A stretch of DNA of 64,000 bases from Chrysomallon squamiferum (taxonomy: Eukaryota; Animalia; Mollusca). The notes beneath the pieces are model-generated. The model saw only the letters and a program-made list of their open reading frames with translations, was not told the origin of the DNA and did not search any database. Shown here piece after piece: positions 3,035-63,700 of the stretch. The number at the start of each line of letters is the position of its first letter. Position 1 is the stretch's first letter. Position numbers and translations under genes: made by a program. Where the stretch lies: the NCBI GenBank assembly GCA_012295275.1, contig CM022667.1, positions 8,928,001-8,992,000 of the forward strand. The letters are read 5' to 3'.

Positions 3035-4647
3035 TTATAAATACTGAGCGAGGTTTCCGATCATTTCCTCATTTCGCTGACGTTTCACTCCTTGTCGTTG
3101 TCTGTGTTTTCTCCTGGCGATTTCTGTCAGTGACCTGGTGTTACCTCCCCTGTTTCTCTTGTTTCCAAACCATTTCTTCACCTGGTCCGAACTGATTCCG
3201 CCAGCCAGCGTCATCGCCTCGACAACAGTCGCTGAGGGATACGGATGGTGGAGATTGGACTGGTACCACTGCTCCATGATCTGAATGGCTTTTCTGGACA
3301 GCGTCGGTCTGTGGCGGACACTGGAAAGCCAGGATGTAGAAGAAGAGTTCTTACTGGACAAGCGACTTTCTTCAAGGACACGAAGACTTTGCTTAACACG
3401 GTCCATTGCCTGAAAGTAAAAAAATTAATAAATTAACAGATAGATGTAATATTCAGTCTTTTCTATGAATATTACATGGTAAATATAGATATTTCTAAAA
3501 ATGTTTGTATTGTTTACATTATTTCATTGTTAATATTATTAGTAACAAAATGGTCATCATGATGCTTCTTCAAGACGTGGTTATTTACATAACTAAATAT
3601 GTGTACGTTTATATAAATCTACATAAAAAGAACTGTGAGCTTACCTGATTTTTCTGACCGTCAAAGTACGAGTTGAGCCACGCCCTGTACTGATTGGACG
3701 TCTGACTGACCAAACAGTTCATCCTCTCCATCTCTATACTGGCCACGTGAAACTGAAACAGGGTAGACAACTCCTTCACCTTCTCGTCAGAATTATCTGC
3801 TGCTTCCAGCTGCTGCAGCCGTATCTTCAGGCTCTGCTCCTCCATGATGTGGTGCATGTTGTTGTGGCCACTGCTGTTGTGGCTGCTGTTGTTGTTGTTT
3901 CCGAGGGTATGAAAAAGTTTACTGGGCAACATGGAGGTGTTGCAGTCTGCCTCCAGAGTGTGTCGAAGGTCAGAAAAGAAAGGATGACTTGCCAGCGGGT
4001 TGTCGTGGGCGATGTTGTTGAAAGGTGAAGAGGAAGATGGTGGTGGTGACTGGTGCTCATCAGACATGTTATCGTCATCATGATCAAAGTCTGTTGTCAA
4101 GGAAATCAGTGTATCACCATAGCGACTATCAGTAGCTAGTTCTGATGACTCATCTAGAAACAATTATACAAATATAATATTTACTATAAAAGAAATATAT
4201 ATAAATTAACTATACAGTATATTGTAACCATATAACAACTTTGTTAGATATACGACTAATATTATCCAGAATGGGTCAAAAGGCAGCTTAAGGAATGATA
4301 AATTTAATCAAATTGTAATACAAAATACAGATTTTAATGATGTTAATTATGACACAATCTCAGGTTTGGCAAAGCAAGGTTTGTGACTTACCAGCAGTCG
4401 TAGTGTCCACAGAGTCAGGCTGGATAGAACTGAACAACTCTTCCAGTGATTCCTGAAAACTCTTCTCAGAGCTGTCACTTGTCAGGCTGGATCGCTGGAT
4501 TGATGGATCAGACGATGAGAGATCCACATCTGCTACTGGGACCACACGATAAACATCTCTGTTTTGTGACACTCTTTCATTTGAACTAACAGACAAACCA
4601 TCATGAGGACAGACAGACAACAAATGGACATCAGAAATAGAAGACAT
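3035..4647 (-). CDS. TALE-class homeobox protein, divergent (spiralian-specific SPILE/TALE-clade type), ~379 aa; exons 4647-4392, 4153-3645, 3409-3035
   Basis: GT-AG junctions have compatible phases (1, then 0) and total 1140 nt, open to TAA. The homeodomain RHRPTLSRKAIQIMEQWYQSNLHHPYPSATVVEAMTLAGGISSDQVKKWFGNKRNR has the TALE loop followed by PYP and helix-3 WFGNKR. It is too divergent from Pbx, Meis, Pknox, Irx, Tgif and Mkx for a gene symbol. Confidence 0.9.
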
Positions 4648-4740
4648 ACTGAGACTTGTAAACAAATATTTCTGTAGCTCAAAATCACCTAGTTTATCTC
4701 AATGTCAGATGACAGATAAATGACAGATGACACTTTTAAT

Positions 4741-18104: not shown

Positions 18105-21100
18105 TTAACCTGCAGTTCCACACACTAACACACGTTCTAGACATTGCGCATTATCAAGAATCCCCACTGTAAAATGAACACCATCAGCACTCAGTGATAT
18201 GTTTCCATTGCCCAGGTCCTGGCTAGAATACAGCTCAGCATACACTGGACAGTGGTCACTCACCAGACCTCCCCACGACCAACCATTTGGGATGCTGGGA
18301 CTGGTCAAACCTTTCCTGACAACACCAGAATGACCTGCAAAAAAAAAAAATAAAAATAAAAATAAAAATAAAAATAAAAATAAAAATAAAAATAAAAATA
18401 AAAATAAAAATAAAAATAAAAATAAAAAAAAAAAAAATAAAATAAAATAAAATAAAATAAAATAAAATAAAAAAAATAAAAAAAAAATAAAATAAAATAT
18501 ATAAATAAATAAGTAAGTAAATAAAATAAAAATAAATACAAAGGTATATAAATACTGTTATTTGTTATTTGTAGTAATGACATGGGGACTTGTGAAATGT
18601 TTTTTAACTATAAAATTAAGAAATGAAAAAAACCAACAAATAAAATAAAATAAAATAAATTTGAAATAAAAAAAATAGCATTAAAAAGAAACTTCTAATG
18701 TCAAAAACAATAGAATAAACAAGAAAACAATAAATGAAAACATCAGTTAATAAAAAAAACAATGAGAATAAAATAAAATAAAATAAAATAAAATAAAATA
18801 AAATAAAATAAAATAAAATAAAATAAATATATAAACACATACAAATATAACAACTAAAACTAAAATATTTTGATGCCAAAATCCTTCAACAAGTAAATGA
18901 ATTTACACAAAAACTCAGGATTTCAGAAAAAACAGGTGACAACATTTTTATAAACCTTTGTTAGTCTTCACATCTTTTTACATTTAAAAATGATCATTCT
19001 GACTCACCTGTGTAGACTTTTTGTGCCTGCTTGTTAAGCCAGATGTTATCATATGACTTGTTTCCATCTGGATTCCTCTCACTGATGTTGGTGTAGATGC
19101 TGCTAGGAATGCAGTGGATGTAACCCTTGGACAACAGATGTTGGAATTCTGTAATATTGAAAGTAAAGACTTATTAGATAATTCCCTACGGTGAAAAAGA
19201 AGTTTATCTTGTTCAAATTGATGTCTTCTGATCTGTTTTATTATTACTGTTAAAAAATGAGTCAGACATATCGTTATTATGTTATACAAAACAGCTCATT
19301 ACTGTTTGTTGTTTTTATACATTAAAAACAGAAATAAATAAATAAATAAATCGATAAATAAATAAACAGACAAATAAATAAATAAATAAATAGACAAATA
19401 AATAAATAAATAAAATAAAATCAAAAATACATAATAATAATAATAATAATAATCAGGAAATAATTGAAAGAGCAAACAAAGCACCACACTAGCACATTTT
19501 AAATCTTTCAGATTAATTCATCTACATCAATACTTAATTGCCTCATATTTCAGCATTGTGCTGCCATTTTCAGTTATTATTTTATAACACCACTTGAGAA
19601 GTGTGAAATTATTCAGTGTCCGAGGTTGATGTTGTTTTGTGTTTTTATTTGGTTTATTTGATTTTTTTTTTTTGTCTTAGAAATGTATAGTTTTAAAGTG
19701 AATGAATTTTGCTTTATCAAAGATTGTCTGTTTTGATAAAGTTAGTAAATGTAATTACCCTCAGAGGCTGGACTCATGTTAAAGTCACCCAGAATTAAGA
19801 TATCATGTTCACCTACAACAGAAAAAAACCAAAAATTAATATGACAAATACAATGAAAATATAAGAATAGCAATAATAATAATAGTAATAATCATAATAA
19901 CAACAATATATTACTACTAATACTACTACTACTGCTACTACTAATTGCAGTAAACATCAAAATAAACCCGATATTTAATCAACATAAAGAAATTAAATAA
20001 CTGACATACTGTCAATGTGTTTGTCTGTCTAGACATTTACAAACTGCTAACAAATATATCAATATATGTATGGATTTTGGATGCATTTGTGTTTGCATGG
20101 ATGCTTTTATATATATATATATATATATTTGTACATATTGCATGCATTTGTGTCTTCTTCCTGGTCTCTGATATTTATCTCAGTATTTATATGAGACTCT
20201 ACTGTAGTAAAAAAATAAAAATTTAGTTGTCCAAACCAGGAAAATGATCTTCGATGGCTCTCACAAGACGCTGAATTCGGCCAGGCTCGGACTTTGTCTG
20301 ATCTACGCCTTCCTCATTTAGACCAGCAGCTTTGAGATGAACACTGATAATAACACAGTCGAAAGTGCCGTTTATCTGAAACAACAAAACAGAACTCTGT
20401 AACCCAGCGTGTCAGGTAATAGCTGTTTCTGTTCTACGTGTTTGTGTTACTTTCTATCTCAGGCTGTAATCAAAGAAGTCAAAGACAAAGACCTAAAGAA
20501 AAAAAAAAGAAGAGAAAAATATCAAGAGAAACTGAGAAAAGGAGACATTAAAAAATTAATTTGATATAAGACATGTAGATATAACAAAACTGTTTTAATG
20601 TAAATGTAAATTTTCTTCAAATCTCTCAAGATTAAATCTAATAATAATATACTTTCAAGCAGCACTGCAAAGACAAATTTATTTTCATTTAGGAGGAAAT
20701 TAAACAACAACTGAAGAACAGTGTTTTATTTAACACCGAACAGACCACAATTTTACAATAAAATCTTTCAGACAGTCGAAAGACCCATGAAGAAAATTAA
20801 ATACAAAACAAAGCCACACTACACTGGGTATTTCTTCTTTTTTTTTAAACAGCAGCAATGAACCTTTTACTCAGTAAAAGCTTTTCTACCAAGTCTGCTG
20901 ATAAACTGTCACAGAGCCTGGTTTGGAACGGGAATAAAGAAAACAATGAGAAAACAGGAGATTTAGCTTATTTACCTGAAACACGGAGAAGAAAGGTTTT
21001 CTCGTAAACAGTTTGGAATCAGACGTGTCCATGTTGAGAACAGACGAACGGACAAGTTTGATGTTTTGTGACGTGTCGTACAAGAAGCCATGGTACTCTG

Positions 21101-22108
21101 AACCCTAGAGAGAAAAAAAAAGATAGAAAGAATAAAATAAAACTGAAAGTATGACGAATAAATAAGTTGTGAATATTTGAGAGAAAATAAATGTCCACAC
21201 ACACAGAGGCAAAAATAAAAAAAATTGAAGTATAATTCATAAATGTATTTATAATCAGACAGGTAAATTAATATAAATTTATAACTAGGTTTGTTTTAAC
21301 ACGACAAAGATGAATTACAATTTTAGATTTCACTGTCATAATAATCTAAAAAAAAAAGAAAAAAAAGAAAAAGAAAAAAATATATATGTACATATGTTTG
21401 TTTTTTTAAATATATTTACAAGAGTAAGATTGTTAAAAAATAAATGTTTTATTTTATTTATTTATTTTTTTTATTTATTTAGATACATTTTAACATGACT
21501 AACAAGGAATACAATTTCAGAGTCATTAAAGTTTAAAAATAAAACTTACATCAGTTATGCTGATAAAAGATTTAAAAAAATATTTTCCTTAAGCTACATT
21601 TTGTAATCAGATACATTTTAAACTGAGAAAAAAGAAATACAGTTTTAGATGTCTGAGTCAATATATTTTGAAAAGGCTTTTGAAAATAACAAGATGATTT
21701 AAGAAATAAAGTTTTTTTTTTTTTTTACTGTAGAATTTCTCTTTTTTAAAAATTTAAATATTTACTCCAGTTACTGGCAACAGGTCAAAATATTTAACTG
21801 CCAAAACTCAACTCTGACATTTTCCTTGTTCATAATCATATTGAAAAAAAAAAAAAAATAAAAATAATGTGTGTATATATAATAAATAAATAATAAATAT
21901 TAATAAATAAAATAATAAGAAGAATTAGCTAATAAAGATAAAAGGCAACATGAAGAATTAGAGATTTAGTTTCACTTCATCAGAAATAGGTGAGTGATTC
22001 TATTACCCAGCAAAAAATGGCCACCAGCCAGAAATGCAAGACCATTAATATTTAACAGAGTCAGGAAATTGTGCTTTTACTGTAGAAAGTTAATATGAGA
22101 GGAGTGTC

Positions 22109-22186
<78 letters not shown>

Positions 22187-22685
22187 CATGTGCATGCGCA
22201 TATAAACATATCTGTATAATTAAATTTTTAAAAACACCTTCAGTTCATATCTCTTTTTATGGATGGGTGTATTCCACTTTAAACACCATACGATACAATA
22301 TTTCAAACTGACAGACAGACAGACAGACAGATTAATGTTCATACTTTGTACATTCGTCCTAGCGCAGGTGAGACAACATTTTTCCATTTTCCTCGTCTTC
22401 CATGCCAGCATCTCACGTTCAGAAGCTTTGGATGGTTCAACTGATCACATATCTGAACAAAAAACACAAACAAACAAAATGCATGTCTTCGCTTGTAAAC
22501 ACATGTATAACTTTTATCAGCACAGTAAATCAATGCTGATTGCTAACTTATTATGCAGGTTACTGAAGCGTGACATGTCTCTGTGTAACTGCATGAGAAG
22601 CTAGTATTCATAGCCATGTTTTACTTTGTAAATTAAACTTTATCAAGTTCTATCAGCTTAAAGTATCTGTGTGTTGCATGATAGT

Positions 22686-22719
<34 letters not shown>

Positions 22720-24861
22720 TGTACATTTATTTCACCATTTGGTTTTAAATAAATATACCAAACTACTTAAATTTGTGTAGATAATAATTATGCATTTTGA
22801 GTTTTGACATATATTAAATTTGCAGATTTGTCTTGGGATTTTATTTAATGCAGATTATCTGTAATTTTATATATTTAACACAGGTTCTGGGTGAAATCTA
22901 TTTCTGTAGACAAACAGTTTTTATTTACACAAATATTTGACTTGCAAATGCATGTCACAGTGTTGCTGATTCTCTGTTAGTTTGATTTGCATGTAATCAC
23001 TAATACTCACTTAATTCTTAATATTCCACACCTGTGTATATCTTGTACAGAGATTTTTATACAGGTAGTCAAGTGAATAAGAAAATAAATATGTAAGTAA
23101 ATAAGTAAGTAAAATTATACTCACATTTTCCAGTGCTTTTTCATCAGCTATTTCCTGCACAGCTAAAATGCCAAATCTGAAAATAAATTTAAATTAAAAT
23201 TAATTTAGTTATTATTATTAATAATTTTTAAACTCTGTTTCTGTAAAAAAATTCGTAAATAAATTTTAAATAAATGGAAAAGAAACAAAATACAACAATA
23301 ACAGAAATTTCTACACAATTCAAGTATTCAATATTGGTCTTAGTAAAATTATAATCAATTAATTTTGTTTTCTTAAGTTTTCTTGTTTTTTTTCCCACTC
23401 TAGCAAGTCATCTTAAAAAAATTTAAAAATTAAAAATAAATAAGTAAAAATAAGAAATAAAAATATTTTTTAAAAAAAAGGACAGATTATGTACATTAAA
23501 TTTTGGGAAAGAATGACATCCTAGTATTAATTATTTATATAATCAGTGTAAACAAGATTAAAATAAATAAATAAGAATAAAGAAATCAGTAACAGCAGCA
23601 GGTAACTGTTTTGTTATATTTCGAGATAAAGTTTTAAACTAATGAGAATACACACAGCGTTATAGCAAGTTTTTTAAAACTCATCTAATCAGTTATTAAC
23701 AGCAGTGATTATTTTCAGATAATTTTATATCCTAAAGTTGCAGTAGTTGTGTCGCATGCGCACACACACACACACACACACGCACGCACGCACGCACACA
23801 CACACACACACACACGCACACACACACACAGACACATTCACACAGACAGAGTTTGAATTTAGTGGACATATATTTTTAAAATTTAAGACTAATTTATTTA
23901 AAGATTGAAATCCTCTGGTACAGAGAATATTCACACACTGCCTGATAAACTGCACTAGGTATGTGTTACAACGGTGAGCAAATCACACTGTAACACGACT
24001 TGATATATCTGATAACATCATCTGATGCAAATTGTCTACAATTATGATCATTTGGTGATTGCTCTTACGTCCACTTCTATGTTTTTTCAATTAAATACTT
24101 TATATTACAGTTTTATCAGTATTGGTTTAAGTGTTGTATTAAAATAATCATTTTGTGATTTAAAATACTTTTAGCATCAACAGATATTACTTTGCTCATA
24201 GTAGTCAGTTACATTTATATAAAGGATCTACCCACTATATCTCTCTCTGTTTCTGTATATACATATATACACACACACAAACGTATGTATGTATGTATAT
24301 ATATATATATATATAAAATAAAATGAGTCATAGTTATAAATCAATATGCTCATGTTTAAAAACTGAAATAATTAATTACATGCAATAGTGAACATATACA
24401 AACTTACGAATTGAAGCAAATTCAATATCTGTAGATGAAATGATTGTTTGAATGAAATGATTGTTTGAATGAATACAACCTTTGTGAATACACATCACTG
24501 TGTATATGTGTGTATGTGTGTGTGTGTGTTGGGGGGGATGTTTTTGTATGAGAGAGGCATGTGTGCAAATAGCATGTCAAAGCACTGAAACAGACACTAA
24601 CAGAGAAAATAATAAATCTATTCCTTTTTTTCTAAAGTAAAAAAATAATATCTGTAAAAGCCTGTAGCCAGCACAGCTGTCTGTAGACACAACATTTACA
24701 TATCTAACAGACAAATTAATTAGTAAGTACCTAAGGACAGCGCAGGGCAATGTGCCTAATTAATAGATGAATAAATATGTGATAATAATGCACTTAACAA
24801 AATTAACAAATATCAAACAATTAACCTCCTAGTTAACCAATGATTGTACAAGTATAGAATC

Positions 24862-24896
<35 letters not shown>

Positions 24897-26176
24897 CCTC
24901 AGATCTAGTTAGTAAATGTGTTTGTGTCTGTGTGTATGTGTATGTGTAATAATAATAATAATAAATCAAAAAAATGATAATGATAATAATAATAGTAAAA
25001 TAAAAATAATGATGATGATAATAATAATAATGATGATAATAATATAATAATAATAAAAATAATAATAAAAATGATAATAATAGTAATAAATAAAAAAAAG
25101 ATAATGATCAAATAATAAAATAAAAATAATGATGATAATGATGATCATGAAAATAATGATGATGATGATGAACATAACAATAAATTAAAAAATAATAATG
25201 ATAATAATAACAACAATAGCAACAATAACAACAATATAAACACACACCCATTTTCCAGAATGGTCATACAAACAGCGTCCTGCACACCAACGTGGCCTGA
25301 CTTCTCTGACGACAACAGCTGTAAATTCCAAGTCGCAATTCGAAAGACTCTTCGGGTTTTGTTCTTGAAATCGAAAGGAACGACATCCGGCCTTTGTCCC
25401 TTCTTGGCAAGAGGTGCGAACATTTCTAACAGGTTTTCTATCGACAGCCTCGACATCTGACTGATTCTGGACATCGTGGAATCGCCTGCTGCCGAAGGTT
25501 CGTGTGGAACGCTTCCATTCAAATGTCTGTGAGCTGGCGTTTTAGCTGTTGACGAATCGTCCAGCGTCAGGAATTGTTTTATTGCACTTAGAACAGCAGG
25601 ACCGACTCCCTTCACCTTCTGCAGGTCCTCGATCGACTGGAACGGTCCCTTCTTGTCTCTGTACGTCACGATGTTTTCCGCTAAATTCTGACCCACCCCT
25701 TTTATCTTCATTAACTGAAAGACGTTGGACGTGTTGATGTTAACCACCGGAGTTGGGGCAGGAACGTGGTCTCTGATGTTGTTGATGTCGATGTTGAGGC
25801 TGCCGTCTGGAGAGCCGCTCTTTGACTCGTTTCGGCGACTCACGACAATTTCCGATCGGATGTTGTTGAGTTTCGCGGCTCCCACCCCCGACACCAAAGC
25901 CACGTCCTCGATTTTCTTGAAGCTGCCGATCTGCCGCCGATGTTCGATGATGTTCTGCGCAGTCGAGCGGTTGATGCCGGGTAACGTCATCAGCTCTTCT
26001 TGCGTTGCTGTGTTTATGTTGACAACGTTGGGCACGCTGTCGCTGTCTTCTGTGGGGAAGCTGAAAGTCGCGCTAAGGTTCCGTCGATGACCTTTGCCCT
26101 TCGGCGTGCAGATTCGATTCTCCCGGCATTCTTCAAAAGTCCTTCGCGGAATGCAGCAACTGTTCACTGCTCCCAT
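18105..26176 (-). CDS. EEPD1: Endonuclease/exonuclease/phosphatase family domain-containing protein 1 (2x HhH + EEP/DNase I-like domain), ~593 aa; exons 26176-25248, 23176-23125, 22452-22345, 21104-20976, 20375-20237, 19812-19759, 19148-19008, 18334-18105
   Basis: The N-terminus MGAVNSCC carries a myristoyl/palmitoyl motif. Two ComEA-type HhH repeats follow (NINTATQEELMTLPGI, NINTSNVFQLMKIKGVG). EEP motifs are ATWNLQ, AVQE, SVHLKA, LGDFN, YDNIW and WSWGGLVSDHCPVYAE. All 7 introns are GT-AG and phase-consistent, totalling 1782 nt. The ATG exon starts at an acceptor at 26358, so there are upstream non-coding exon(s). Confidence 0.95.
18350..18426. repeat. (TAAAAA)n hexanucleotide run forming the T-rich tract of the last EEPD1 intron
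   Basis: Seen directly; continues into (TAAAA)n and (TAAA)n. Confidence 0.9.
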
Positions 26177-27243
26177 GGTTACTGTGTCTATGGCAACGAA
26201 ACTTGTTTACGTTACATCTGGCATTTCAGAATTTTTTTTAAAAGAAATTTCAGTTTCAGTTTTGCCGTTTTCGTCTTTCTGGATTAAGTATTTTAAAAAT
26301 GTTCTTGTAAAAACACATCACAGATCAGTCAGTCATTGGTTGTGGATGTACTGCAAACCTGGAATAAAAAAATAAAAATAAATAAATAAAAATAAATTAA
26401 ATTAACATATAATACATACATAATTCTGTATATTTCACAGACATGTGTGGTTTATTCATACATATGTGTGCATATCTGATATATCTGTATATTTACATTT
26501 GTAAGGCAAATTTTGATAAAGAATCTTCTACTGACGAATATACTTCTGCACAAAAGAAAATCAGTTCAATTTTCTAAATTTTAAAATATGATTTAATGTC
26601 ATTAAAAAATAAAAATAAAAATAAAATAATAATTACAAAAATGTAACAAAACAAAGCATTATAACTGACAGTATATATTTCAAGATAGGTAATTTGATCA
26701 AGGTATTTTTTATTGATTAGTATATACTGTTAAGTGAGATTAATTGATAAAACACATTATTGTTACCAACAAATAACACACATAGGGCAATTATCTGTAT
26801 TTAACTAGACAAAAGTAATTTTTAATTTACAAATATACTTCAGCACAAAATAAAATCACTAGAATTTTCTGTGTTTAATTCAATAAAGAACCGAATATAC
26901 AAATATACCGAACAAATTATTTTTCATATTATAACAATATATAAGCACAAAATGAAATCAAATAAATCTTCTGTATTCTAAATTCTGATTTATTTCAGTA
27001 ACAATATGTTAGTTGTCTTGACACGTATACTGAGCACAACAAGAAATCAAGTTAATTTTCTGTATTCTCAGTACCAATTTATTTTAATAAATATTTTTTA
27101 TTCATCAATGTGTAGCAGCAGAAAAAGACATCAACTGAAATCTGATAAAATTTTATCACTGAATTATATCGTGCATATACTAATTAATTCAAGATTTATG
27201 TAAAATATCTGTTTCATTAACACTTCCCATAGTTTATTACCTG

Positions 27244-45699: not shown

Positions 45700-45950
45700 A
45701 AGCCGCAACGCAACTACAGTTCCGGTCATTACGTTTCCGGTTAAAAAGCCGTGAAGGAAAATAGCGGTGGAATGAAATAGAAAACAGAGCGGAAACGGCT
45801 AAGAGCTTCTTGCACCTTCTCGATGACGTCACGATGGTAGTTTTAATTTGGTCAATAGATTTTGTTTATGAATGAAACACGAGAGGAAGTGAGAAGGGTA
45901 GTAGCTACTTTTTTTTACCCCGCCTCAATACTAAACACCGGAAATAATTA
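45700..45950. promoter_or_regulatory. CpG-rich promoter upstream of the CpcT-VirK gene, probably bidirectional and shared with EEPD1
   Basis: Motif cluster: ACTACAGTTCC (ZNF143/THAP11-type, 45713-45723), TTCCGG ETS-like sites (~45720, ~45735, and CCGGAAA ~45938), TGACGTCA CRE (45824-45831), GAGGAAGTG (~45883) and GC-box CCCCGCCTC (45918-45926). Confidence 0.6.
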
Positions 45951-46164: not shown

Positions 46165-46826
46165 ATGAGGTGCGCCGATTTCAAAGGATATTCGCTGATT
46201 TGTTACTTTTTCTGCTGGATTATGTTTTTCATCGCACATATCACAGTGACTCGAGGATCGTCTCTTCAAGGCGACATGAAAATTTTATCTCACATTTTGC
46301 CAGGAGTGTACACGAATTCGCAACAATATTTGAACGAATCGGGCAAAAACATGACGTCTGCTAGACGCCATTTCTTAATGAAATCGACGTATCGGCCCGT
46401 GGACGTTCCGTTTCTTCCTGGATCGTTCAACGTGTTTGCAGAACAGTTCCACGGAGACGACCTCATCCCGTACAGACAACGACTTTACAGCTTCAGCATC
46501 GACAACAGCCAACGCGCCATTCGAATGAAGATTTTTAGTTTCAACGACAGCGGAACCGCTGAACAGACACTTCATTCTCTGTCCTCTCTGTCGCATTTAA
46601 ATCCGCGTGACCTTGACAACTCAAAATGGCTGTGACATGTTTTGGAGAAGATTGAGTAGGACAATGTTTATCGCCGCAACAGGAATAGAATGTCTTGGAA
46701 CTATAAAAGGAGAAACGGTATTATTTATAGATTGTGTGTCATTTATTCACCATAGCCGCACCTTAATAATAATAATAATAATAATAATATTAGTAGTAGT
46801 AATAGCAGTAGCAGTAGCAGTAGTAA

Positions 46827-46864
<38 letters not shown>

Positions 46865-47170
46865 ATAGTAGTAGAAATAATAACAACCACAACAACAGTA
46901 TTATTATAGTAATAATAATGAATGAAATATACCAGCTCCTCCTTCCTTTTGTTTAAAAATCAGGAACCTAATATTCTTAGGTGTTTAAATTTGTTTTTGT
47001 TTTTGTTGTTTTAACAAAAACTCCTATAAAAATATGTGCTTTCCTTCTTGCTTATATTTGAATGTTATGTATTTACATAAATTATGTGTACATTATAAGT
47101 GATGCCTCTATTCAACAAACAACTATTTTTTACAAATAAACAAATTCATTTATTAATTTATTACCTTTGA

Positions 47171-47235
<65 letters not shown>

Positions 47236-47780
47236 TTTGTGCGTGTGTGTTTGTTCCTTTGTTGTTGTTGTTTTTTCTTAAATTTATTATATTATTATTT
47301 TTTTATATCTAAAAAAAAAAATAATAAAAAAAATACAACAACAACAGAATATAGTTTTTATGGGAGGAGACACCATGCTTTGTAATCTGAATAAAGCCCA
47401 AAAGCGGTGACATTTTAAAATAGGTTGTGAACCGGAAAACGTTACGTAAACAGACACATTTTGATCTTTAATTTTATCGCCATTGAAAGTAATTGTGTTT
47501 TCCTTTGGTAATCTATCCGCAGTAAATGCACGCACCAGCTTATTTCAAACGAGCTCTTTGATCCATTGCAACAAGATATAATGGTAATAACAAAACACGT
47601 AATTATAACTGGGCTGCAGTATCAGTGTAATATTAACACCAGCAGTTTTAGTTTTTAACAATAATAGTAAAGTTATTGGTAATAGTAGATGTAGTTTCAG
47701 CAATGACACTAATAGTAGTAAGCGTAGAAGTAACAATAATGGAAAGAGTAGTAGTAATTCTAGAAACAAATATATATACT

Positions 47781-47822
<42 letters not shown>

Positions 47823-47947
47823 TTTATCATCATTATAATCACAATATTAATAACAAGAAACAAACATCACCAATAACTTACAAAAACATTCAAAACATTT
47901 TATGTCAGTAAATGTTTGAATCCAAATTATTTTGACAACTATTATCA

Positions 47948-47989
<42 letters not shown>

Positions 47990-48476
47990 CACTCACTAAC
48001 TTATTTATTTACTAAGGTACGTGTATCGGTGACAATAACTCTAACGTCTAAAGTTATCCAGACTCAGGAAGCGTGGTACCGGGTAAAAGACGGAACCAAA
48101 GTCGTGGAGATTGAAATCCCGTATCACCTGATCAAAATTAAAAAGTATAAAGCCAAAAGGTAAATATTTACTTTCATTCTCTTATTATTCTTTTTCATCT
48201 GATTAATGTAACCTTATAATCACTATTTCTACAGGTACCAAACCATTTGTGACCGGATGAATCCGGATATTCCGGACCAAAACGTGATAATTCTGTGCAT
48301 AAAATATGAAATAGAAATTAAAAGAACGAAATGGTATTTAACAGATACATACAAATGGTCTGTACTGTTTTACCAGTTCCAAAATATTTGTATACTTTTG
48401 TTCTCTAAGTATATACTGACTTTTCATTTTTAATTGTCTTTCTTTATTTTATTTTTTTAATTTATTATTATTTTTC

Positions 48477-48563
<87 letters not shown>

Positions 48564-50112
48564 TCTTCTATTTCTTTCTTTTATCTTTATTATTCCTTTT
48601 TCCTCACATTTTGCTTTATCTCACTCTCATTTTCTTTCTTTTTCCAAATTCCAAACGAATCATATTTTGTTTTCATTTTTGATTTCAGTTTTAAAATGAG
48701 GTCCAAGAAATCGAGTAGAGAATTAAATCTTCAAAACGACTTGCCAGAGGTTCCGTCAAACGGGAAGGTCAGATACAGAACGAAAAAACTCTTCTTAAGA
48801 AAAAAGTTTCATGTATCCATGAGCACGTGGGCAATCAACAGCTTCCGGGGATTACAGGATGCCCTCACTTCCGGTCGCGTGGTACATTACGTCGTTGACC
48901 TTTCAGCTTGTTCTTTCCCCCCACAGACGAAAATAAACCGGAAATCGTTTGGTGATAAGATTACTATGTTTGAAAACATAAAACTTTTCGACGGAAAGAA
49001 AAGGAATATTATAAAGTTTTCGCAGAACAGGATGCTGCAGGATCGAAATGGTTAGATTACATTTTTATTTATTTGTTTAATTTTCTATTCATCTGTTCAG
49101 GGTCATTGTCCGTCGATTCCTCCATGATTAAACTAGATAAACATCGCTACAAGGAGACAGACAGATTTTTTTTGACTGCATTCAGTAAACCATCGATTTA
49201 ATTTTTACCTCGATTCCGTGTATTTTGGATTAGTGGACACAAATTTAGCAAACTGATTTCTTTACGTTCGAACCACGTAACTAAATTTCCTCAGGAGCAA
49301 TAGCTACCTCTCCGTAATTTACACACACCTCAAAATGTACCGCACTTAGTGTGAGTGGTGCTGATTTGTAGAAACCACACCCACACACTGATATTTAATG
49401 ATTTTTTATGATTAATATAAACCCCTCTATAACCAAGTGAATCACCTCTCCAAATTTTAGAATTGGAACGTGTCAATTTATTCCATGAAAAAAAAAAAAA
49501 AAAATAAAATAAAAAATATTTATTATTAAAAATAGTGAGTTCAAAAATTATTCGTATTGTAGCATTAAAATGCTTAAAATTACAATCTTACATTATCAAA
49601 ATATTTTAATTGTTAAACATTTATTATCCGACGGATTTCGACTATTTTGTCTGTATTAGTCCGATAATGCGAGAGTCTACTGTAGTTTCAAATATAAACG
49701 AGCAATAGATAGATACTGACATTCACACAGACACACAAAGCGTAGCAACAAGTTTTAGTCCGATACATTGTTCGTTATAGCATCAAATCATTATGTGCAC
49801 TAGTTTATCTGTTTCACGCTCTTGCTAATTTATTGTGTGCCTTGCAGCCTACGAGAAGGTGCATAAAAAACATCCTTACTGCTAAAAGAAAAAGAAAAGA
49901 CCAACCGGTTTGCTCTTTCGTTATCTGTGTAATACTGAACGATAAGATGTTGATATTTGATTTATTATATAAGAAACTCAGTTTCAAGATCGATATTTAA
50001 TTAACTGATTCCATTGGGCTTTATACTCCAAGCAATAACTTCATACCCAAAAGTGAAAGAAACAAGTTTGTGTCAACGTTGTTTGCTTACTTATCTGTCT
50101 CGAAATTCATTT

Positions 50113-50188
<76 letters not shown>

Positions 50189-50810
50189 TTTAAAAAACGA
50201 AAACAAATATAAATGTTCTTCTGTATTTTTAAAGGATAAACACGTAGAAGATATTTGAAGAGTTTCTAATATCTGAATGTGTCTGCCTCTCTCTCTCTCG
50301 TATTTCCCTGTTACACAGTTTTAATTAAATGTAATGTTAAACTGACAGTAAACTAATTTCGTTTTCAGGAGGCGACATTATTGTAAGGGAGATAACCGTG
50401 TTTGGTAATGGGAGAGTTCTGGTTAAAGTTATTATCGGTAATGAAAACGCAAATCGATATCCCAGAGCGTATGCTGGGTACTGCAGGTTATTCGACTATC
50501 GTGTAAGGTGAGTTGTTTCCCCTCTTCTGTCACTGGCGAGTAGTTCAACTCGCTCGCTCTCTCTTATTTACCTTCATCCACTCTGTTATATATCAAGCGG
50601 TGTTCACACACATACACATGCACTTCCACACATACCCAAGAATAAAAGCACGCGCACCTATGTTATTGAATACGGTAATGAAATAGTATCGATAACTATA
50701 AGTTTTAACTAAGCTAAACTAAACTGAACTAATAATTAACTAAATAAAAATAAATATATAAATAAATAAATAGAAAATGAGTGACATTATTTTCATCGTC
50801 AAACATTTTC

Positions 50811-50842
<32 letters not shown>

Positions 50843-51151
50843 TGCACTTATTTACATAATTACATTCGTATTTACTTAATATGTATTATATATATGTGTT
50901 TTATTTTTAATTTTTTAATATATTATTTATTTAGGAAAGGTGGGATTAGATTCTCCACAGACCCACTGAAGGACATAGAAGAAATTAAGACTTTTACAGA
51001 GCTCAAATCATCACTAATGTCAGGAAAACAAGTGCGCATGTCCGTAGATTTAACGAAATGTTCCGGTTCGGACAACACAGAACGCAGAGAAGTAGGAGGA
51101 GAAATTCGAGGTATTATTAATTTACTATCGTCATTACTGTGTCGTTATTAT

Positions 51152-51198
<47 letters not shown>

Positions 51199-51463
51199 TT
51201 ATTACTACTACTAGTAGTACTACTACTACTGTTATTGAATTTTTCATTTAGCAATTTAAATTTAATAACGTAACTACTATAACAAGGATTTTTGTCTCTT
51301 ATTTATTTATTTTATTTTTTATTTGTTTTTTGTTATAGTTGTTGGATTATTATTGTTGTTTTTATTATTATTGTTATTTTTATTATTATTATCTTTATTT
51401 CCATTATTACTGTTGTTGCTGTTGTTTGCATTAGTATTAGTATTATTATTATATTTATTATTA

Positions 51464-51510
<47 letters not shown>

Positions 51511-51770
51511 GCAGCTTACGACTTCACAGATTCTGACGACGGAATAGAATTTACTTTGTCACGGTCAGAAATTGACCTCGTGCGGCGGGAGGTCTCGCAG
51601 CTCATTTTGATTGGTCGGTTTCTCAGCAATGGCGACGTTCTTTTACAGAGACTCAGAACAGACACGAAAACGCCATTCCGGAAATTCAGAACCATTACAG
51701 ATGTGCTATAGAGGTGAACGGACTAAGACACAACACACGAAACAATTCTGTTAAAATGTTTACTTTGTAA
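46165..51770 (+). CDS. Secreted protein: signal peptide + CpcT/CpeT (T-type bilin lyase-like) domain + 2 VirK-like domains, ~542 aa after correcting two 1-nt frameshifts; exons 46165-46717, 48017-48159, 48689-49050, 50369-50507, 50935-51110, 51515-51770
   Basis: The leader is hydrophobic. CpcT-like motifs: LPGVYTNSQQ, FAEQF..PYRQRLYSF, L....GCDMFW, EC, PYHLIK. VirK-like repeats: INSFRGLQDALTSGRVVHYVVDLSAC and IKTFTELKSSLMSGKQVRMSVDLTKC, each followed by G..I, NG.V and Y-x(0,1)-C...(G/S)(I/V)..F. The five GT-AG introns have matching phases (0,2,1,2,1). Frameshifts lie at ~46612 and ~51641-51690, so a pseudogene or assembly error cannot be excluded. Confidence 0.75.
48481..48560. repeat. (CT)n microsatellite
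   Basis: Perfect dinucleotide run in intron 2 of the CpcT-VirK gene. Confidence 0.95.
49183..49684. mobile_element. Possible degraded pogo/Tigger-type MITE in intron 3 of the CpcT-VirK gene
   Basis: The right end cgagagtctactg-ta (reverse complement TA-CAGTAGACTCTCG) resembles pogo-like CAGT-starting TIRs. The left end CAGTAAACCATCG matches 10/13 but lacks a clean TA. Confidence 0.3.
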
Positions 51771-53267: not shown

Positions 53268-53893
53268 CTATTGTATGGTGTAGTATTTGGATCCAACATC
53301 TGTGACCGTCGCGTTCTCGATCGACTTGAAGAGGAAACAGTTCGTGTGCACCGTGCTGTCGCTTACAACAAACGAACTACATCCGCGAACGCGCATGCAC
53401 AACCTCCAACACACTCGTCTGTCGGTCGCATTCACTTCCGCCATCATCTGGTCGGACCGGATATCCGGTATCAGATCACGTGAGGCCACGCGGAAATAGA
53501 CTGAGTCACGCCCGCTGTCGGTCCACTTGTTCTTGCGCATCGTCGCCTTCCACGCTGCACTTCCGGTGAGGCAGTGAAAGCCGACGAGGTCGCAGGAATG
53601 AACTTTGATTGCCTCCCCTGGTCGTCGGGAATCTTCGGTAAGACACTGGATTTCTCGATTTCCCGCCACTTTCCTCTCCATGTACACTGAAAGAGAGACG
53701 AAGAACAATAGAATCATGTATAAAAACAGAGAAACTAATTTCAGAAAAATCTAACGTTACAGTCCAGTAGCTCTAAAATCTACAACGAAATAATAATTAA
53801 AGGAAACTTTGAACGTATTACTACTATCATCATCATCATCATTATTATCATCGTTGTTATTATTATTATCATCGTTATTATTATTATTATTAC

Positions 53894-53950
<57 letters not shown>

Positions 53951-54972
53951 CGTTATTATCGTTATCATCGTTATCATCGTTGTTCATTATTATTATTATT
54001 ATTATTATTATTACGGCACACCTCCTGGATCAACCTTCCAGTTTTTAGGTTGACAGAACGACGCCATGTTCTTCACTTCCTCGCTAGACGGCACCGCCGA
54101 GTAGATCTGAAAGCAGACGACCCTTCCCACAAACCCTTGCTCCTCGCTGTCCGGGTCGTGCGAGCCTCCGATTCGCAGGGAGCCGACGACGGGAAGAGCG
54201 ATTTCGTTAGGAAAGTCGTCGTCGAGGTTCTCCAGCAGCTTGCTGTCGTGAAACACCTTCAGCGTCCCGGTTTCGTAGTCCCTGCTGATGACCACGTGGC
54301 TCCACGTGTCTGCGGCGAGGACGTTGGGAATGGCCGTGGTGCCCACGGACACTCCGTACTCGTCCCAGAACGAGATGAAGAAGTATTCTTCCATGAGAGA
54401 GATTTTCAGCACGTCGCCGCTCTCACAGCGGTAACTGAGGATCGTCCCTGCGGGTTTACCCTCGGGGTAAATGTGGAACGACAGGGCGAGGTCTTGGAAG
54501 TTTACTTTCCCGTCGAGAACGATTTCGATCGCAGAGCGAGGCGCTCCGGTCAGCTTCAGCGCGTCGTACGGCATGCCGGGATATCCTCTGCCAAACCGGA
54601 AGCAGCCGCCATCTCCCACAATTCTCGCGTCACGACCTCGAATGACCTCGGAGTAAACGGAAGTGTTTCCAAGCGGCCATACGTACTCAGGAGTCAGCTC
54701 TCCAGCAGACGACACCGGCGAAACTGAAAATAGAAATTTTGCAAAATAAAATAAATTTTATTTTATTTGTGTATTGTTTATTATAAATAAATGAATTATA
54801 TGATTAAAATATAACTTCTGCAGCACATATAGTAATGATAATAACAACAACAACAACAACAACAACACAACAAGAACAACAACAGTTATAACAACAGTAA
54901 CAACAATAGCAACTACAATAACAACAACAACAATACTACTACTACTACTACTACAACTAATAATAATAATAA

Positions 54973-57857: not shown

Positions 57858-59725
57858 TGTGTGTCAAGATGAACTGGATTATGGGATTACCGTGCTATTT
57901 ATAGAAAAAAGGGATTTCTAAAACTGCAGGTAAAAAAAATCCAGGTAATGTTTGACGAACGAATCATTTCTTCAAATCAATATTCTATCTCTCTCGGGTG
58001 ATCGTTCTTAGCGAGTTTGGACATCCGTGAAAATGAATAATTGATTAAGAATTTGTCTGAGATGGCGAATGCGTTGTTATTTTCAGTGTGATTACGTAAC
58101 GAAATATTATTTTGCTGAAGTGGATGATGGACGGACGAGTACAGTTAGGTCAGACGAATGGATGGTTACAAACAGACAGATGAACGGACAACTGGCGTTT
58201 TGAAAGCAAAATAAACAAACCGGAAATAATTACAGACAAGCTGTGACCATCTTTGTGCTAGTTACAGCAACAGAACAAATATAAAAGCAAATTATACTTA
58301 GGTAAATTACAAGTGTATGAAATATGCAAAGCAGTGTCTGTAAACAGTGTGAGAAGAACAGCTAAAGGTAATACTGAAAGGTAATAAATGAACTAGTATT
58401 TAATTCTATCAGTTATTTTTTTTTTAACGATCATAAATTTTCAGAATTGGGGTGTACATTCATTGCAAATAAATATTTACAGAGAACACGATTTTAGGTA
58501 ACGATCGAAAACCCGTCTGAAGCTGTTTGTTTCGTTTATTTCCAGGCTTCATCAGCATCGTCATCATCATTGTCAATGCACTTCCACTGTCATCATCATC
58601 ATTATTATCATTTTTATTTCATTTAGGACATCAGGAAATCATTATCGTCATTATTCTCTTCATTTCATCTTCATTATCGTCTAACCCTATTTTCATGTCT
58701 GTCTCTTCGTTTCAGCTGTTGACAGACTACTGCAAACAACACTCTAGATTTTACACACGAATGTCAGAGACGTATGCACATATTTGATATTCTCATCTTT
58801 TCACAGCGATATCTTAATGATGGCTGAATAATGACATGTAATGGCACGCATAATTAATATTCTCTTTCACGATAATTTAATTGGAGTTTGCTCAAAATGT
58901 CGAATCTTATAATGGCAACATGTACCGTGCAAACCAAATAAGTCTCAGTTTTCGTCATCTAGGAAAGAATCATATTCATGTCACAAACTGACCTTTATTT
59001 TTATGTCCTTACAGATGCGGTATTTGTTCCATCTGAGCATGATTTCTCTGGAGGCCATCTTTAATGGCGGCCAATCGTGTAAAAGCAACCAAAATGGAGA
59101 AATATTATAGCTGGACCGGTTCCCACGATTTGTGTTGCGCTTTCTAGTGTGTTATGGCGATACAGACGTGTGCCAGTGAAATTCTTTAGGAATATTTTGG
59201 GAATTTTTTTTATATGTGTTTATTATATATATATATATATATATATCTGTTTGTGTGTGATTCGAGAAATATTTGTGGAAATACCGATACTTTGGGAAAT
59301 ATTTACTTTATCAAAAGAAAAGAAAAAAAATGGGTTTGCTTATGAGAAGAAAGAGAAAAAGTAAGTAGAGTGTGAAAAATCATTTGACGTTTTTATTCAG
59401 TAATACCCTGAAAAAAAAAAAAAAAAAGATAATGAAGAAGAAATTCGAATATAAAAACCATTAACATATTATAACATTTTAAATCTCGCTAATAGTCTCA
59501 AACTCTAACAAGTATTATACAGTGTACTATATTTTTCTTTTCTTAATGTTTTTGTCCTGAAAGAGTTATTCCTCGTTGCCTGTCTGAAAGGTTTATGAAA
59601 TGTGTAAAAAGATAGGACTATATTTTTGGAAACACAGCTGTAACACTTGAAAACAACGCGTTCTTGTATACGTAATTAATCTAATTGCCGGAGTTTGTAT
59701 TTCATTTATAAATAGACAGTTACAG

Positions 59726-60720
59726 GCTGCTGCTACAACAATAACAACAACTACTACTGCTGCAACAATAACAACAACTACTACTGCTGCAGCAATAACA
59801 ACTACTACTACTGCTACAACAATAACAACTATTACTGCTACAACAATAATAACAACTACTACTGCTACAACAATAACAACAACTACTACTGCTACAACAA
59901 TAACAACAACTATTACTGCTACAGCAATAACAACAACTACTACTGCTACAACAATAACAACAACTACTACTGCTACAGCAATAACAACAACTACTACTGC
60001 TACAACAATAACAACAACTACTACTGCTACAGCAATAACAACAACTACTACTGCTACAACAATAACAACAACTACTACTGCTGCAGCAATAACAACTACT
60101 ACTACTGCTACAACAATAACAACAACTACTACTGCTGCTACAACAACAACTACTACTGCTGCAGCAATAACAACTACTACTGCTACAACAATAACAACAA
60201 CTACTACTGCTACAACAATAACAACAACTACTACTGCTACAACAATAACAACAACTACTACTGCTACAGCAATAACAACAACTACTACTGCTACAACAAT
60301 AACAACAACTACTACTGCTACAGCAATAACAACTACTACTACTGCTACAGCAATAACAACAACTACTACTGCTACAGCAATAACAACAACTACTACTGCT
60401 ACAACAACAACTACTACTGCTACAACAATAACAACAATTACTACTGCTACAACAATAACAACTACTACTGCTACAGCAATAACAACAACTACTACTACCA
60501 GAACAATAACAACAACTACTATTGCTACAACAATAACAACTACTAGTGCTACAACAATAACAACAACTACTGCTACAGCAATAATAACAACAACTACTGC
60601 TACAGCAACAATAACAACTACTATTGCTACAACAATAACAACTACTAGTGCTACAACAATAACAATTACTGCAGCGAAAACAACATCTACTGCTACTACA
60701 ACTAGAGCTGCTGCCACTAG
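59726..60720. repeat. ~1 kb compound trinucleotide minisatellite, ~24-30 bp unit (actactactgctacaacaataacaaca)
   Basis: More than 30 degenerate copies built from ACT/ACA/GCT/ATA triplets; source of the 374-aa Val-rich ORF. Confidence 0.95.
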
Positions 60721-63700
60721 TACTAATATTGCTGCTAGTAATATTACTATTACTAGTACTACTGCAGCTGTTGCTTTTACTACTATACTATTGTTATTAC
60801 TACCATTGTTATTATTACAACCACTACTACTACTACTGTTACTATTACTTCTAAACTACTATTACTAACTGCTGCTGCTGCTACTACTACTACTGTTACA
60901 CTACTTCTATGGTAGTAATAAAAGTAGTATTACTATTAATGCTATTATACTGATAATAATAATTGGAATACAAAGTCATGAAAAATTATTAGTAATTTAA
61001 ATACATTCGTTAATGTATGACTGCAACAGTCAAAGATTATTATTATTATTATTATTATTGTTATTGTATTTGTTATTACTGTTATTATTGTTGTTATTAC
61101 TGTTATTGTTGTTATAATATATTAATTTAAAATAAATAAATAAACAAACAAATAAACAAACAAATAAATAAATAAATAAATAAAACAAGTGTATTAATAA
61201 TTAACAAATAAACAGTAAATATATACACAAAATATGATTAAACAAACAAGCAAACAAATAAACAAACAAACAAACAAAAAATACAAAAATTAGTAAGGAT
61301 TAATTTAAAACCATGAAAAAGTTCTAATGTTTGGATAACTGCGTAATCAAAAAAAAAAAAAAAAAAAAAAAAAAACAAACAGAAACATAAATGTTTAAAT
61401 AATAAGGGAAAATGTAAGAAATAAAGAATGAAATTTAAAAATAAATGAATAAAAATAAAGAATATTAAAATGCATTGCAGAGCAACTAATATAACATAGA
61501 ACACAAATATAATGTAAACGTAAACACCAACTTTCATTTTCATTAATGAAAAAGTAATTATATGTTTTGTAAAGAAAGACGATATGTTAATTTGCTTTTA
61601 TTAAAAAAAAACATGAACGATTAAATGTCAAAATACTATAAACAAAAAATAAAAAAGAAGTAAAATAAAAAGTAAAAATAAACAAAATATAATAATGAAT
61701 GAAATAATTATCCAGCTTAATTGAAAACATGGATAGTCACTTAGTAACAAAGTCCATATCGTCACGTGATCAATATCGCCATGACGACGGAACAACAAGA
61801 TGGTCGCTGATAACAGAACACACTGCAGTAAAACAATTACTGATTCCAGTGTGTACCCACGTAATGAATCGAACGCGCTCACCTCCTAATTAATCATGGC
61901 CGTAATAGAAAAACTTGCTGATGTACGAGATAACTCTGTATTTCTTTCACTGCGAAAAGGTTATCGTTCACTGACTCATCTCCCCTTGCTACTTTTTACG
62001 GAGATCATTTTACGAATCAAAGGATCTTCATTAAAAGCACTGAACGTAAAGCGAAGCTTAATATTTACATGATTTTTTACCTTTGTTTTTGTTTTATTTT
62101 CTGTGTGTCCAGAAAGTATAACATTTCAAACGTCCTTCTGTCCCTCTCTGTTTTTTTTTTTTTTATCAGTTTGGTTTATTTATTTTATTTTCGTTATAAA
62201 ATCAAGCTATGATTAATTTTTTTTTTCGATTAACAAATAGAAATAGCGATCTGTCTTTCTCGTTTTGTCTCTTTTGTTCTCTGTCTGTCTGTTTAACTTT
62301 TAGCATATTTTTTATATGTTTCTACTCATAGTAATATAAATATTAATATTTATGACTATGTGCGCAAGTAGTCTCTAATGACTTTCGAACACACACACAC
62401 ACAAATACACGCACACACACACAGGCACACAAACGCACACAACACATGAATACGCATATACATATACATATACTGAAAATTCTGAATGTGATCATTATTC
62501 AGAATTTCATATGTTGCATCCACAGTTATAAACATTTATATAAGTTTACTTATCTAATGTATTTTTTAAATAATATGATTTAAGATATTTATTTATTAAT
62601 TTATTTTTATCTATTAATTTATTTATTCAGTATTTACTTATCCATTTTCTATTGAATTACTAGCAGAACGCCAACTACAGTCCAATAACTTCATATCACA
62701 AATTCACGCAACGGAAGTCAGGTTTTACGCTGTTAATCCAGATCACGTGATCTCTCTCCTTCATTTATCAAACGCCGACAATCTGGCGCACCTAGGACAC
62801 GTGATAATTTTGATTAACCTCTTTCATTTAACTTCTTTGTACCTCTTCATTACCGCAGGAAATCAGATTTGCTTTCGTAACGAGTATTAATTAAGCTGTA
62901 CCTGTGATGTCTGGCATTGTAAAGGAAAAAAAACCGTTAAGCGTTCGTTTGAAAGACGTTTTTTCATTAGGACTAGGAAAAAATCAAAATGATTGGTGTG
63001 AAAACTGCGGGGTTGAAGAGTTGCGGCCCGTTGCTTGTGCATCTGTTGTTAAGTGGGGTCGCTGGTAGTCAGTTTGTGTTCTGTTGTCAATTAGAAAAAA
63101 GAAAAACGACAACAACACTACAATAAGAATAAACCTAACATTCATGTGTATATATATATATTTATTTTCACACACGCACATACACACACAAATAGACAGT
63201 AATAAAGAAAGTAAAATTAAAACAACAGACAACAAATCTGTCTTCTAACAGGAGATACCCCAGCGTACTCGAGAAAGAAGGAAAGAAGAAGCTTTGATAT
63301 CACCTTGACAACGTTTGATTTTATGATATTTACAGATAAGCTGCTAAAATTACTGAATAAACCTTGCCAATCATGATCAAACATAACAGCAACAACAACA
63401 CAACAACAATAGCCGCAGCAACCAATAGCAATAAATAATATAATATAATATAATATAATATAATATAATATAATATAATATAAACAAATAATATAATAGA
63501 ACAAATAAACAAACAAACAAACAGAGAACAAATGAACAAACAAAAAATCAAATTATAAATAAATAAATAAATAAATAAATAAAACTAAACAAAACAAAAC
63601 AAACTATACTGTAACACAAATTTTAAAAATCGCCAACCCCCCCCCCAACAACAAATATTAATTAGATTACATTGAACGTTTACACTCAATAACTGTTTCG

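Follow-up and report, generated by a model that had tools for sequence, protein, structure and literature searches.

The T-type bilin lyases are homodimers, and in CpcT the residues Tyr65 and Asp163 are catalytic and arginines anchor the propionates. A lyase of this type is described in the literature as binding a bilin and adding it to Cys-155 of a phycobiliprotein beta subunit (PMC2327270), and the T type is defined in PMC7242693 as well. Homologues of the plant protein CRUMPLED LEAF (CRL) are stated in a 2024 paper to be missing from yeast and animals, and there the binding of phycocyanobilin (PCB) is not tied to a phenotype (PMC11606413). VirK, another protein that bears on the locus described here, is presented in two sources as an exported protein with an undefined role (PMC5700972; bioRxiv 10.1101/2021.08.03.454866). 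In the current report we describe a gene of the mollusc Chrysomallon squamiferum, at positions 46165-51770 of the plus strand of a 64,000-nucleotide stretch of genomic DNA (assembly GCA_012295275.1, contig CM022667.1, positions 8,928,001 to 8,992,000; hereafter "the window"), whose predicted product joins a CpcT-type barrel to two VirK domains and likely binds or processes a small molecule outside cells. The gene is real, spliced and conserved in molluscs.

Six exons, separated by five GT-AG introns of compatible splice phase, lie where the initial annotation had placed them and encode a product of ~542 residues when translated, with X, through two breaks in the reading frame. Exon 1 (46165-46717) encodes the leader and most of the CpcT/CpeT barrel (Pfam CpeT, E=1.4e-9) and contains one surplus base near 46611-46613. 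The final barrel strands are specified by exon 2 (48017-48159; 87% identity to the orthologue), together with an invariant Glu that occurs in the motif EAW and is aligned to CpcT Asp163. Exon 3 (48689-49050) begins with a basic, low-confidence linker carrying a QNDLP motif and continues, from ~48825, into the first half of VirK repeat 1 (Pfam VirK, E=0.0085, under the cut-off). The second half of that repeat is in exon 4 (50369-50507), assigned by its splice phases and 54% identity to the orthologue; exon 5 (50935-51110; Pfam VirK, E=5e-5; 67% identity) completes repeat 1 and begins repeat 2 at ~50975, and exon 6 (51515-51770) supplies the remainder of repeat 2 and the stop codon, with a frame shift near 51630-51642. 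The orthologue used in these comparisons is an intact protein of Gigantopelta aegis, which is 68% identical to the window product and continuous across the second break.

When the orthologue is aligned to the window by tblastn, the match switches frame at both of the 1-base breaks. At the first, one base is missing, at 46611 or 46613, in all four of the sequencing runs that cover exons 1-2 (two of RNA and two of DNA, from two studies), and this break is therefore an assembly error. At the second, the orthologue matches frame 1 (71%) and then frame 3 (58%) and ends at the same stop codon, so that another assembly error is probable. Two RNA contigs from one study, X6 and X7, join 46717 directly to 48017 and have a loose end after 48159 that corresponds to the start of exon 3; their depth is 113 and 25, versus 0-5 in the intron. 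Of the eight coding differences among the runs, six are synonymous, against an expectation of 22% (binomial p=0.002, calculated at the level of contigs), and of the two that alter the protein one is common to all four runs. A pseudogene, or a contaminating sequence of non-animal origin, might have been suspected from the two breaks, the second of which was judged from the orthologue. The absence of the first break from every run, the spliced RNA, the synonymous excess, the microsatellite-rich introns, the animal genes on either side and the intact orthologue make such an explanation exceedingly improbable. The earlier suggestion of an old, domesticated gene is supported, with intact orthologues and spliced transcripts.

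Pfam models were applied to seven exon pieces with cut-offs of 21 bits for CpeT and 23.7 bits for VirK. The barrel belongs by profile to PF06206 (CpeT/CpcT), exon 1 scoring 38.5 bits and the orthologue 66.7 bits, and a further weak CpeT match (E=0.12) occurs in the shifted frame. A structural model of the orthologue built from a 73-row alignment has a mean predicted local distance difference test score (pLDDT) of 85 and a predicted template-modelling (TM) score of 0.59, with the linker, residues 237-276, below a pLDDT of 50. In an earlier model, from a 6-row alignment, the barrel itself was below 50 and the fold search recovered only VirK. Residues 31-236 of the later model match CpcT at a Foldseek E of 1.6e-9 and a TM score of 0.78, and match PDB 4O4S at Z 21.8, with a root-mean-square deviation (rmsd) of 2.4 over 189 residues. 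The barrel also matches CRL (Z 17.0) and a phage CpeT (Z 16.3), and its weaker matches are ligand-binding barrels, namely THAP4 nitrobindin (Z 9.2) and CRABP/FABP proteins (Z 6-7). We conclude from the profile and the predicted fold that the product, which carries a CpcT-type barrel, belongs to the CpeT/CpcT fold family. A scan of NCBIfam matched none of six proteins, and feature scores of 0.80-0.85 from the ESM Atlas were treated as leads only.

The assignment of the C-terminal half to VirK (PF06903) is based on a score of 23.8 bits for exon 5 and of 32.3 bits, in two stretches, for the orthologue. The two repeats can be aligned with each other (27% identity over 119 residues, pairwise E=1e-6). 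Repeat 1 (model residues 277-406) resembles the Legionella VirK protein lpg1832 (PDB 5XTA) at Z 11.2 and 11.0, with an rmsd of 2.5 over 116 of 120 residues, and in one of two fold searches 5XTA was the sole chain with Z of at least 5 among 48,161. Repeat 2 is likewise assigned to VirK by profile homology and matching secondary structure, the listed fold match being to repeat 1. CpcT and VirK were thus recovered by the profile and predicted-fold comparisons alike, in agreement with the initial annotation, which had read a CpcT-like domain and tandem VirK-like domains from the motifs G.YTNSQQ, EQ, PYRQR, a pair of Cys, EAW in place of DRG and a repeated L..G..V...VDL..C, all of which were found again.

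The predicted signal peptide and start codon occupy 46165-46257 (about residues 1-31, with a hydrophobic 11-mer from residue 11), as had been proposed, and a hydrophobic N-terminal stretch is present in 14 of the 15 full-length rows examined; the remaining row is a model truncated at its N terminus. No later stretch of the protein reaches transmembrane level. From this hydrophobic leader we infer that the product is secreted. Each of the three domains of the mature protein contributes two Cys, six in total, and their positions are conserved in the family; therefore three disulfides, one in each domain, are probable and a free acceptor thiol would be missing. The VirK repeats, which had been suggested as acceptors of bilin, each hold just these two conserved and probably paired Cys and would make poor acceptors. 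Proteolytic release of the barrel was considered as a general feature and rejected, since a furin-type site in the linker occurs in only three of 15 rows and is missing from the window gene.

The combination of barrel and VirK is not peculiar to one species. A word-indexed protein search returned six proteins, five of them named and all from molluscs. A profile search of 1.84 billion representative sequences gave 255 matches at E<=0.001; in 77 of the longer ones among the 150 listed, Pfam recognised VirK in 15 and both families in 11. Twenty-six clusters were looked up by name and comprised 17 with an animal species, one EukProt member, one JGI hypothetical protein and seven without a name. 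All 17 animal-named clusters are from molluscs, a restriction that applies to the named matches only, a minority of the 255. The family is found in gastropods (Gigantopelta, Haliotis, Lottia, Babylonia, Batillaria, Physella, Bradybaena, Elysia), bivalves (Mya, Mactra, Sinanodonta, Potamilus, Mytilus, Pinctada) and one cephalopod (Argonauta), and a survey of the architecture finds barrel plus VirK in all three classes. In one Pinctada protein (P0017) the second VirK repeat continues into low-density lipoprotein (LDL) receptor class B repeats, probably through a merged gene model. Tblastn with the orthologue detected no match in phages and, in plasmids, one weak CpcT match (26%, E=0.02) and four chance matches to glycosyltransferases. 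A search of a prokaryote genome set with the mollusc alignment yielded no relative: of its 11 pattern matches, not one was confirmed.

At least three paralogue groups can be distinguished, two of which, A and B, are old and share the barrel with tandem VirK domains. Group A, to which the window gene belongs, is basic, with an isoelectric point (pI) of 9.3-10.3 in the 11 rows with a valid value. Group B (Lottia, Haliotis and Batillaria) has the same architecture, a pI of 5.6-5.7 and six to eight N-glycosylation motifs, and group C (Bradybaena and Elysia; P0053, P0068, P0074 and P0091) consists of long-branched proteins with the barrel only and extra Cys.

The ancestry of the barrel was examined in three unrooted trees: a rapid one of 120 barrel domains (from which 10 redundant rows, and domains with less than 72% coverage, had been removed), a more careful tree of 43 chosen rows under the LG model and a C20 tree of 36 rows. 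These trees contain only five or six lyase rows, CRL having been left out, and they agree with one another. The mollusc barrels form one clade (support 99/93 in LG and 90/89 in C20) that joins five eukaryote-looking rows (98/94 and 99/99), among exported proteins of a bacterial, CpcT-like type. "Eukaryote-looking" is our own label, an EukProt cluster member being known only for P0056 and a bacterial-type C-terminal domain being present on P0064. Three eukaryote-looking relatives (P0162, P0062 and P0087) have a barrel and one or two additional domains of ~190 residues. By their motifs we take these domains to be similar to ependymin-related lipid-binding proteins, a likeness that finds no support in Pfam or PDB sequence searches, which returned nothing for the C-terminal domains of P0162 and P0062.

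The mollusc barrels are separated from the cyanobacterial and phage lyases by a well supported split (100/99), and the approximately unbiased (AU) test rejects a grouping of molluscs with lyases (p=0.0066). The reading of the gene as a lyase is weakened by this: as judged from these alignments, the barrel descends from a separate exported clade of non-cyanobacterial type and not from cyanobacterial or phage lyases. The gene may have originated by transfer from a microbe or by patchy retention, both being possible because eukaryote-looking sequences sit between the molluscs and the bacteria. Group A roughly tracks the mollusc classes in the tree, except that the long-branched Physella is out of place. 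In a tree of VirK domains, the copies of repeat 1 from groups A and B cluster together (84/76), as do those of repeat 2 (94/91), and the VirK duplication would therefore be older than the split between the paralogues. In the history that we propose, a barrel of the exported clade would have become joined to a VirK domain, VirK would then have duplicated, the whole gene might have duplicated ahead of gastropod diversification, and group A would have passed vertically through gastropods, bivalves and cephalopods.

The nearest bacterial group in the trees is made up of exported, uncharacterised CpcT-like proteins of non-cyanobacterial type (for example L089, L009, P0048, P0063 and P0113). Their usual C-terminal domain of ~110 residues is unrelated to VirK (a score of 13.7 against the mollusc VirK profile, which is no match). 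At one locus (L089:832-8962) the exported CpcT-like gene is adjoined by genes for a flavin amine oxidase, a DUF1838 protein, a cytochrome c and a VOC protein, and at another (L009:453-8742) by genes for a flavin amine oxidase, a DUF1838 protein and a TonB receptor; the L009 barrel was recognised by tblastn, a Pfam match being absent at 1e-3. The first of these loci contains a further small open reading frame (ORF; L089:8399-8962) with a faint match to the barrel profile. When genomes were scanned with P0072, matches to its nitroreductase part prevailed, and two of 80 loci matched the barrel region.

In two bacterial-looking proteins, P0113 and P0138, a leader is followed by ~140 residues that match the mollusc VirK profile, a barrel and a C-terminal domain, in that order. 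P0113 scores 11.0 bits against the profile; of 400 shuffled sequences 379 gave a score, the highest being 6.0. P0138 alone scores 1.5. Compared as a pair by hhalign, the two reach a probability of 92% over 65 columns, with a score of 39.6, while the best of 60 column shuffles reached 15.5; the Pfam VirK model has no match on either. Their barrels are not sister to the mollusc barrels (AU p=0.029), which makes this an apparent second fusion, with the opposite order of domains. Such observations suggest that a VirK-like domain and a CpcT-type barrel were fused independently in bacterial-looking proteins. A genomic search with P0113 did not recover its own contig and returned two distant loci with a barrel only. 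VirK was present in four of 401 sampled proteobacterial genomes, and none of its 1.5-kb flanks contained a CpcT-like gene, numbers too few for a test of linkage.

Residues of the putative pocket were compared by using the CpcT of Acaryochloris as a ruler, with numbering consistent with that of 4O4O. Tyr65, Arg66, Arg68 and the Cys pair are retained in the window gene, and the position of Asp163 is occupied by Glu, as it is in all 21 mollusc rows that extend to it. The gene is without His33, Arg164, Gly165, Trp175 and Gly176, having EAW and VE in place of DRG and WG. Among six lyase rows, Arg164 is present in five and Gly165, Trp175 and Gly176 in all; in the molluscs these four are replaced in every group-A row and almost every group-B row that reaches them, and His33 is mostly replaced. 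DRG is kept in no mollusc row, its replacement by EAW in the window gene being as given in the initial annotation, and the DRG and WG motifs of a T-type lyase are thus not found. The retention of PYR.R and both Cys that was also claimed is true of the window gene and, for the Cys pair, of the family (31 of 31 mollusc rows, in which the first-strand G.Y.N..Q is conserved as well), but Tyr at position 65 is found in only seven of 22 group-A rows and in none of nine from groups B and C. The mollusc family, as aligned, keeps a pocket acid and not the set of lyase residues, and on this comparison the product is not classed as a T-type lyase.

A true lyase or ligase, which would attach bilin covalently to its own VirK repeats or to another animal protein, or act in reverse to strip dietary phycobiliproteins, could be argued from the closeness of the predicted fold to CpcT and from the Tyr and the acid, at the two catalytic positions of CpcT, in the window gene, G. 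aegis and Haliotis. The position of the barrel outside the lyase clade, the absence of that Tyr from much of the family and the probable pairing of all six Cys render it highly improbable. Animals, moreover, have no known phycobiliprotein substrate.

We consider it about an even chance (a probability of roughly 0.5) that the product is a secreted protein which binds or processes a small hydrophobic molecule, probably one that contains nitrogen, and that its VirK pair serves for docking and not as a pigment acceptor. The CpcT-type barrel would hold or process such a ligand outside cells, and the invariant Glu, lining the pocket, might pair with an amine or a pyrrole NH or serve as a general acid. 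A flexible basic linker would tether two disulfide-stapled VirK domains to the barrel, and the pair might dock it on a partner or a surface. Of the extracellular carrier or ligase for small ligands that had been suggested initially, the small-ligand role outside cells appears likely and the ligase or lyase activity is weakened. Several points weigh against the reading of a general small-molecule binder. The pocket was assigned by sequence alignment to CpcT; the Tyr, two Arg and acid at CpcT positions 65, 66, 68 and 163 are, in this lineage, compatible with the binding of a bilin; the bacterial gene context consists of two loci that are evolutionarily remote; and the VirK match of P0113 and P0138 is moderate (11 bits), at the level of sequence and without support from Pfam VirK. 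In addition, plant CRL is described in two sources as a CpcT fold that can work without its ligand (PMC11606413; bioRxiv 10.1101/2021.04.25.441383).

Bilins may be the ligand of the barrel, and in the most specific form of this idea the protein would be a non-covalent bilin carrier or scavenger, acting in the gut, haemolymph, mucus or mantle on biliverdin or on phycobilins from the diet, for pigment transport or the handling of haem breakdown. The nearest solved folds bind phycocyanobilin, PYRQR and the acid at 163 are kept in this lineage, and CRL, according to the same two sources, retains PCB binding despite a new function (PMC11606413; bioRxiv 10.1101/2021.04.25.441383). Sea hares are reported to detach phycoerythrobilin, in the digestive gland, from the phycoerythrin of their diet; its methylation takes place in the ink gland (PMC4771992). 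Nevertheless, the replacement of residues that are near-invariant in the lyases and the scarcity of Tyr65 in group A, together with its absence from groups B and C, make a carrier dedicated to bilins rather unlikely. An intact gene is found, furthermore, in predators, in filter feeders and in G. aegis, a snail of deep-sea vents that is not known to feed on algae.

An extracellular scaffold or surface binder that needs no ligand, in which barrel and VirK would both be modules for interaction with proteins or polymers in mucus, shell matrix or the surface of microbes, would resemble what CRL appears to be in plastids, where its PCB binding is reported to be uncorrelated with phenotype (PMC11606413; bioRxiv 10.1101/2021.04.25.441383). 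The strongly basic character of group A would suit such a role, and bacterial VirK is described as being exported by type II secretion (T2SS) and induced by host contact (PMC5700972; bioRxiv 10.1101/2021.08.03.454866). Group B is acidic, however, with its architecture unchanged, and a retained pocket would better account for the invariant Glu and for the polar residues conserved in the first strand, so that we regard a pure scaffold as unlikely.

A bolder and decidedly unlikely proposal would unite several of these strands: a secreted CpcT-type bilin handler would have been kept through the entire history of the molluscs, either as a carrier or as a lyase working in reverse, to free and ferry phycobilins or biliverdin, and exported CpcT-type barrels would in general have VirK as their docking partner, the two having been fused in molluscs and in bacteria independently. 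If this were true, bilin pigments obtained from the diet, such as those of sea-hare ink, would owe their handling to this so far missing protein, and docking to such barrels would be the first functional clue for VirK.

The surroundings of the gene in the window are as follows. A promoter-like stretch upstream, at 45700-45950, has three copies of CCGGAA, TGACGTCA at 45824-45831 and an ACTACA motif. CCGGAA occurs 17 times in the window, versus four expected, and is frequent in exons as well, which makes the promoter signal weak. RNA contig X7 runs unspliced to 46000 and further. A gene with tandem helix-hairpin-helix motifs (18105-26206, minus strand), presumably EEPD1-like, is transcribed away from the barrel-VirK gene and could share a promoter with it, given a distant 5' exon. 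The convergent neighbour is a LamG/concanavalin gene (53268-54757, minus strand) with a Cys-rich exon that we take to be PAN/apple-like in appearance, no Pfam match being found at 1e-3. A TALE-class (KN) homeobox gene was recognised by domain scan at 3035-4700 (minus strand). A degenerate trinucleotide repeat of ~1.2 kb (59593-60868), open in several frames and Thr-rich on the plus strand, may be a mucin-like exon or a plain microsatellite.

In the literature searched, which did not extend to supplements and subscription papers, we found no paper on CpcT together with VirK, or on CpcT, horizontal gene transfer and a gastropod, and none of the listed titles on DUF1001, PF06206 or PF06903 concerns animals. 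The initial suggestion of an undescribed system therefore holds within those searches. Database entries for the proteins exist; they are uncharacterised and carry precomputed matches to both Pfam domains. The family extends the CRL domain (DUF1001) to three mollusc classes and at least three paralogue groups, despite the statement of 2024 that its homologues are absent from animals (PMC11606413). It also links two folds of open function, the non-lyase CpcT barrels and VirK, the latter recurrent in the secretomes of plant pathogens without an assigned role. If the bacterial-looking fusion holds, the pairing of the two arose twice, which would point to a common job. The mollusc proteins are, in addition, an expressible candidate for the handling of bilins or other small nitrogen compounds outside mollusc cells.

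Of the known systems, CpcT (Nostoc All5339, PDB 4O4O and 4O4S; phage CpeT, 5HI8; PF06206) shares with the mollusc protein the barrel fold, two barrel Cys, the first-strand N..Q, EQ and, in this lineage, PYR. The mollusc protein differs from it in its predicted secretion, in the fusion of two VirK domains, in the change of DRG to E[AG]W and the loss of WG, in its separate clade and in a host without phycobiliprotein. CRUMPLED LEAF, or rice SSG7 (PDB 6LIX), is likewise a CpcT-fold protein of a eukaryote whose function has diverged from that of a lyase, but it sits in the outer envelope of the plastid and retains DRG and WG, neither of which applies to the mollusc protein. The exported bacterial CpcT-like proteins have in common with it a signal peptide and a barrel and, in P0113 and P0138, apparently a VirK-like domain; they differ in usually ending with the ~110-residue domain and, at the two loci read, in their amine-oxidase and TonB clusters. 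The VirK proteins of Legionella, Xanthomonas, Dickeya and Agrobacterium, to which the VirK/YbjX family of Shigella is unrelated, share the fold (Z 11 over 116 of 120 residues), two Cys and export, which for the mollusc protein is predicted. They are single domains of ~140-150 residues, whereas in the molluscs VirK occurs as tandem copies behind a barrel, in the product of an intron-containing gene.

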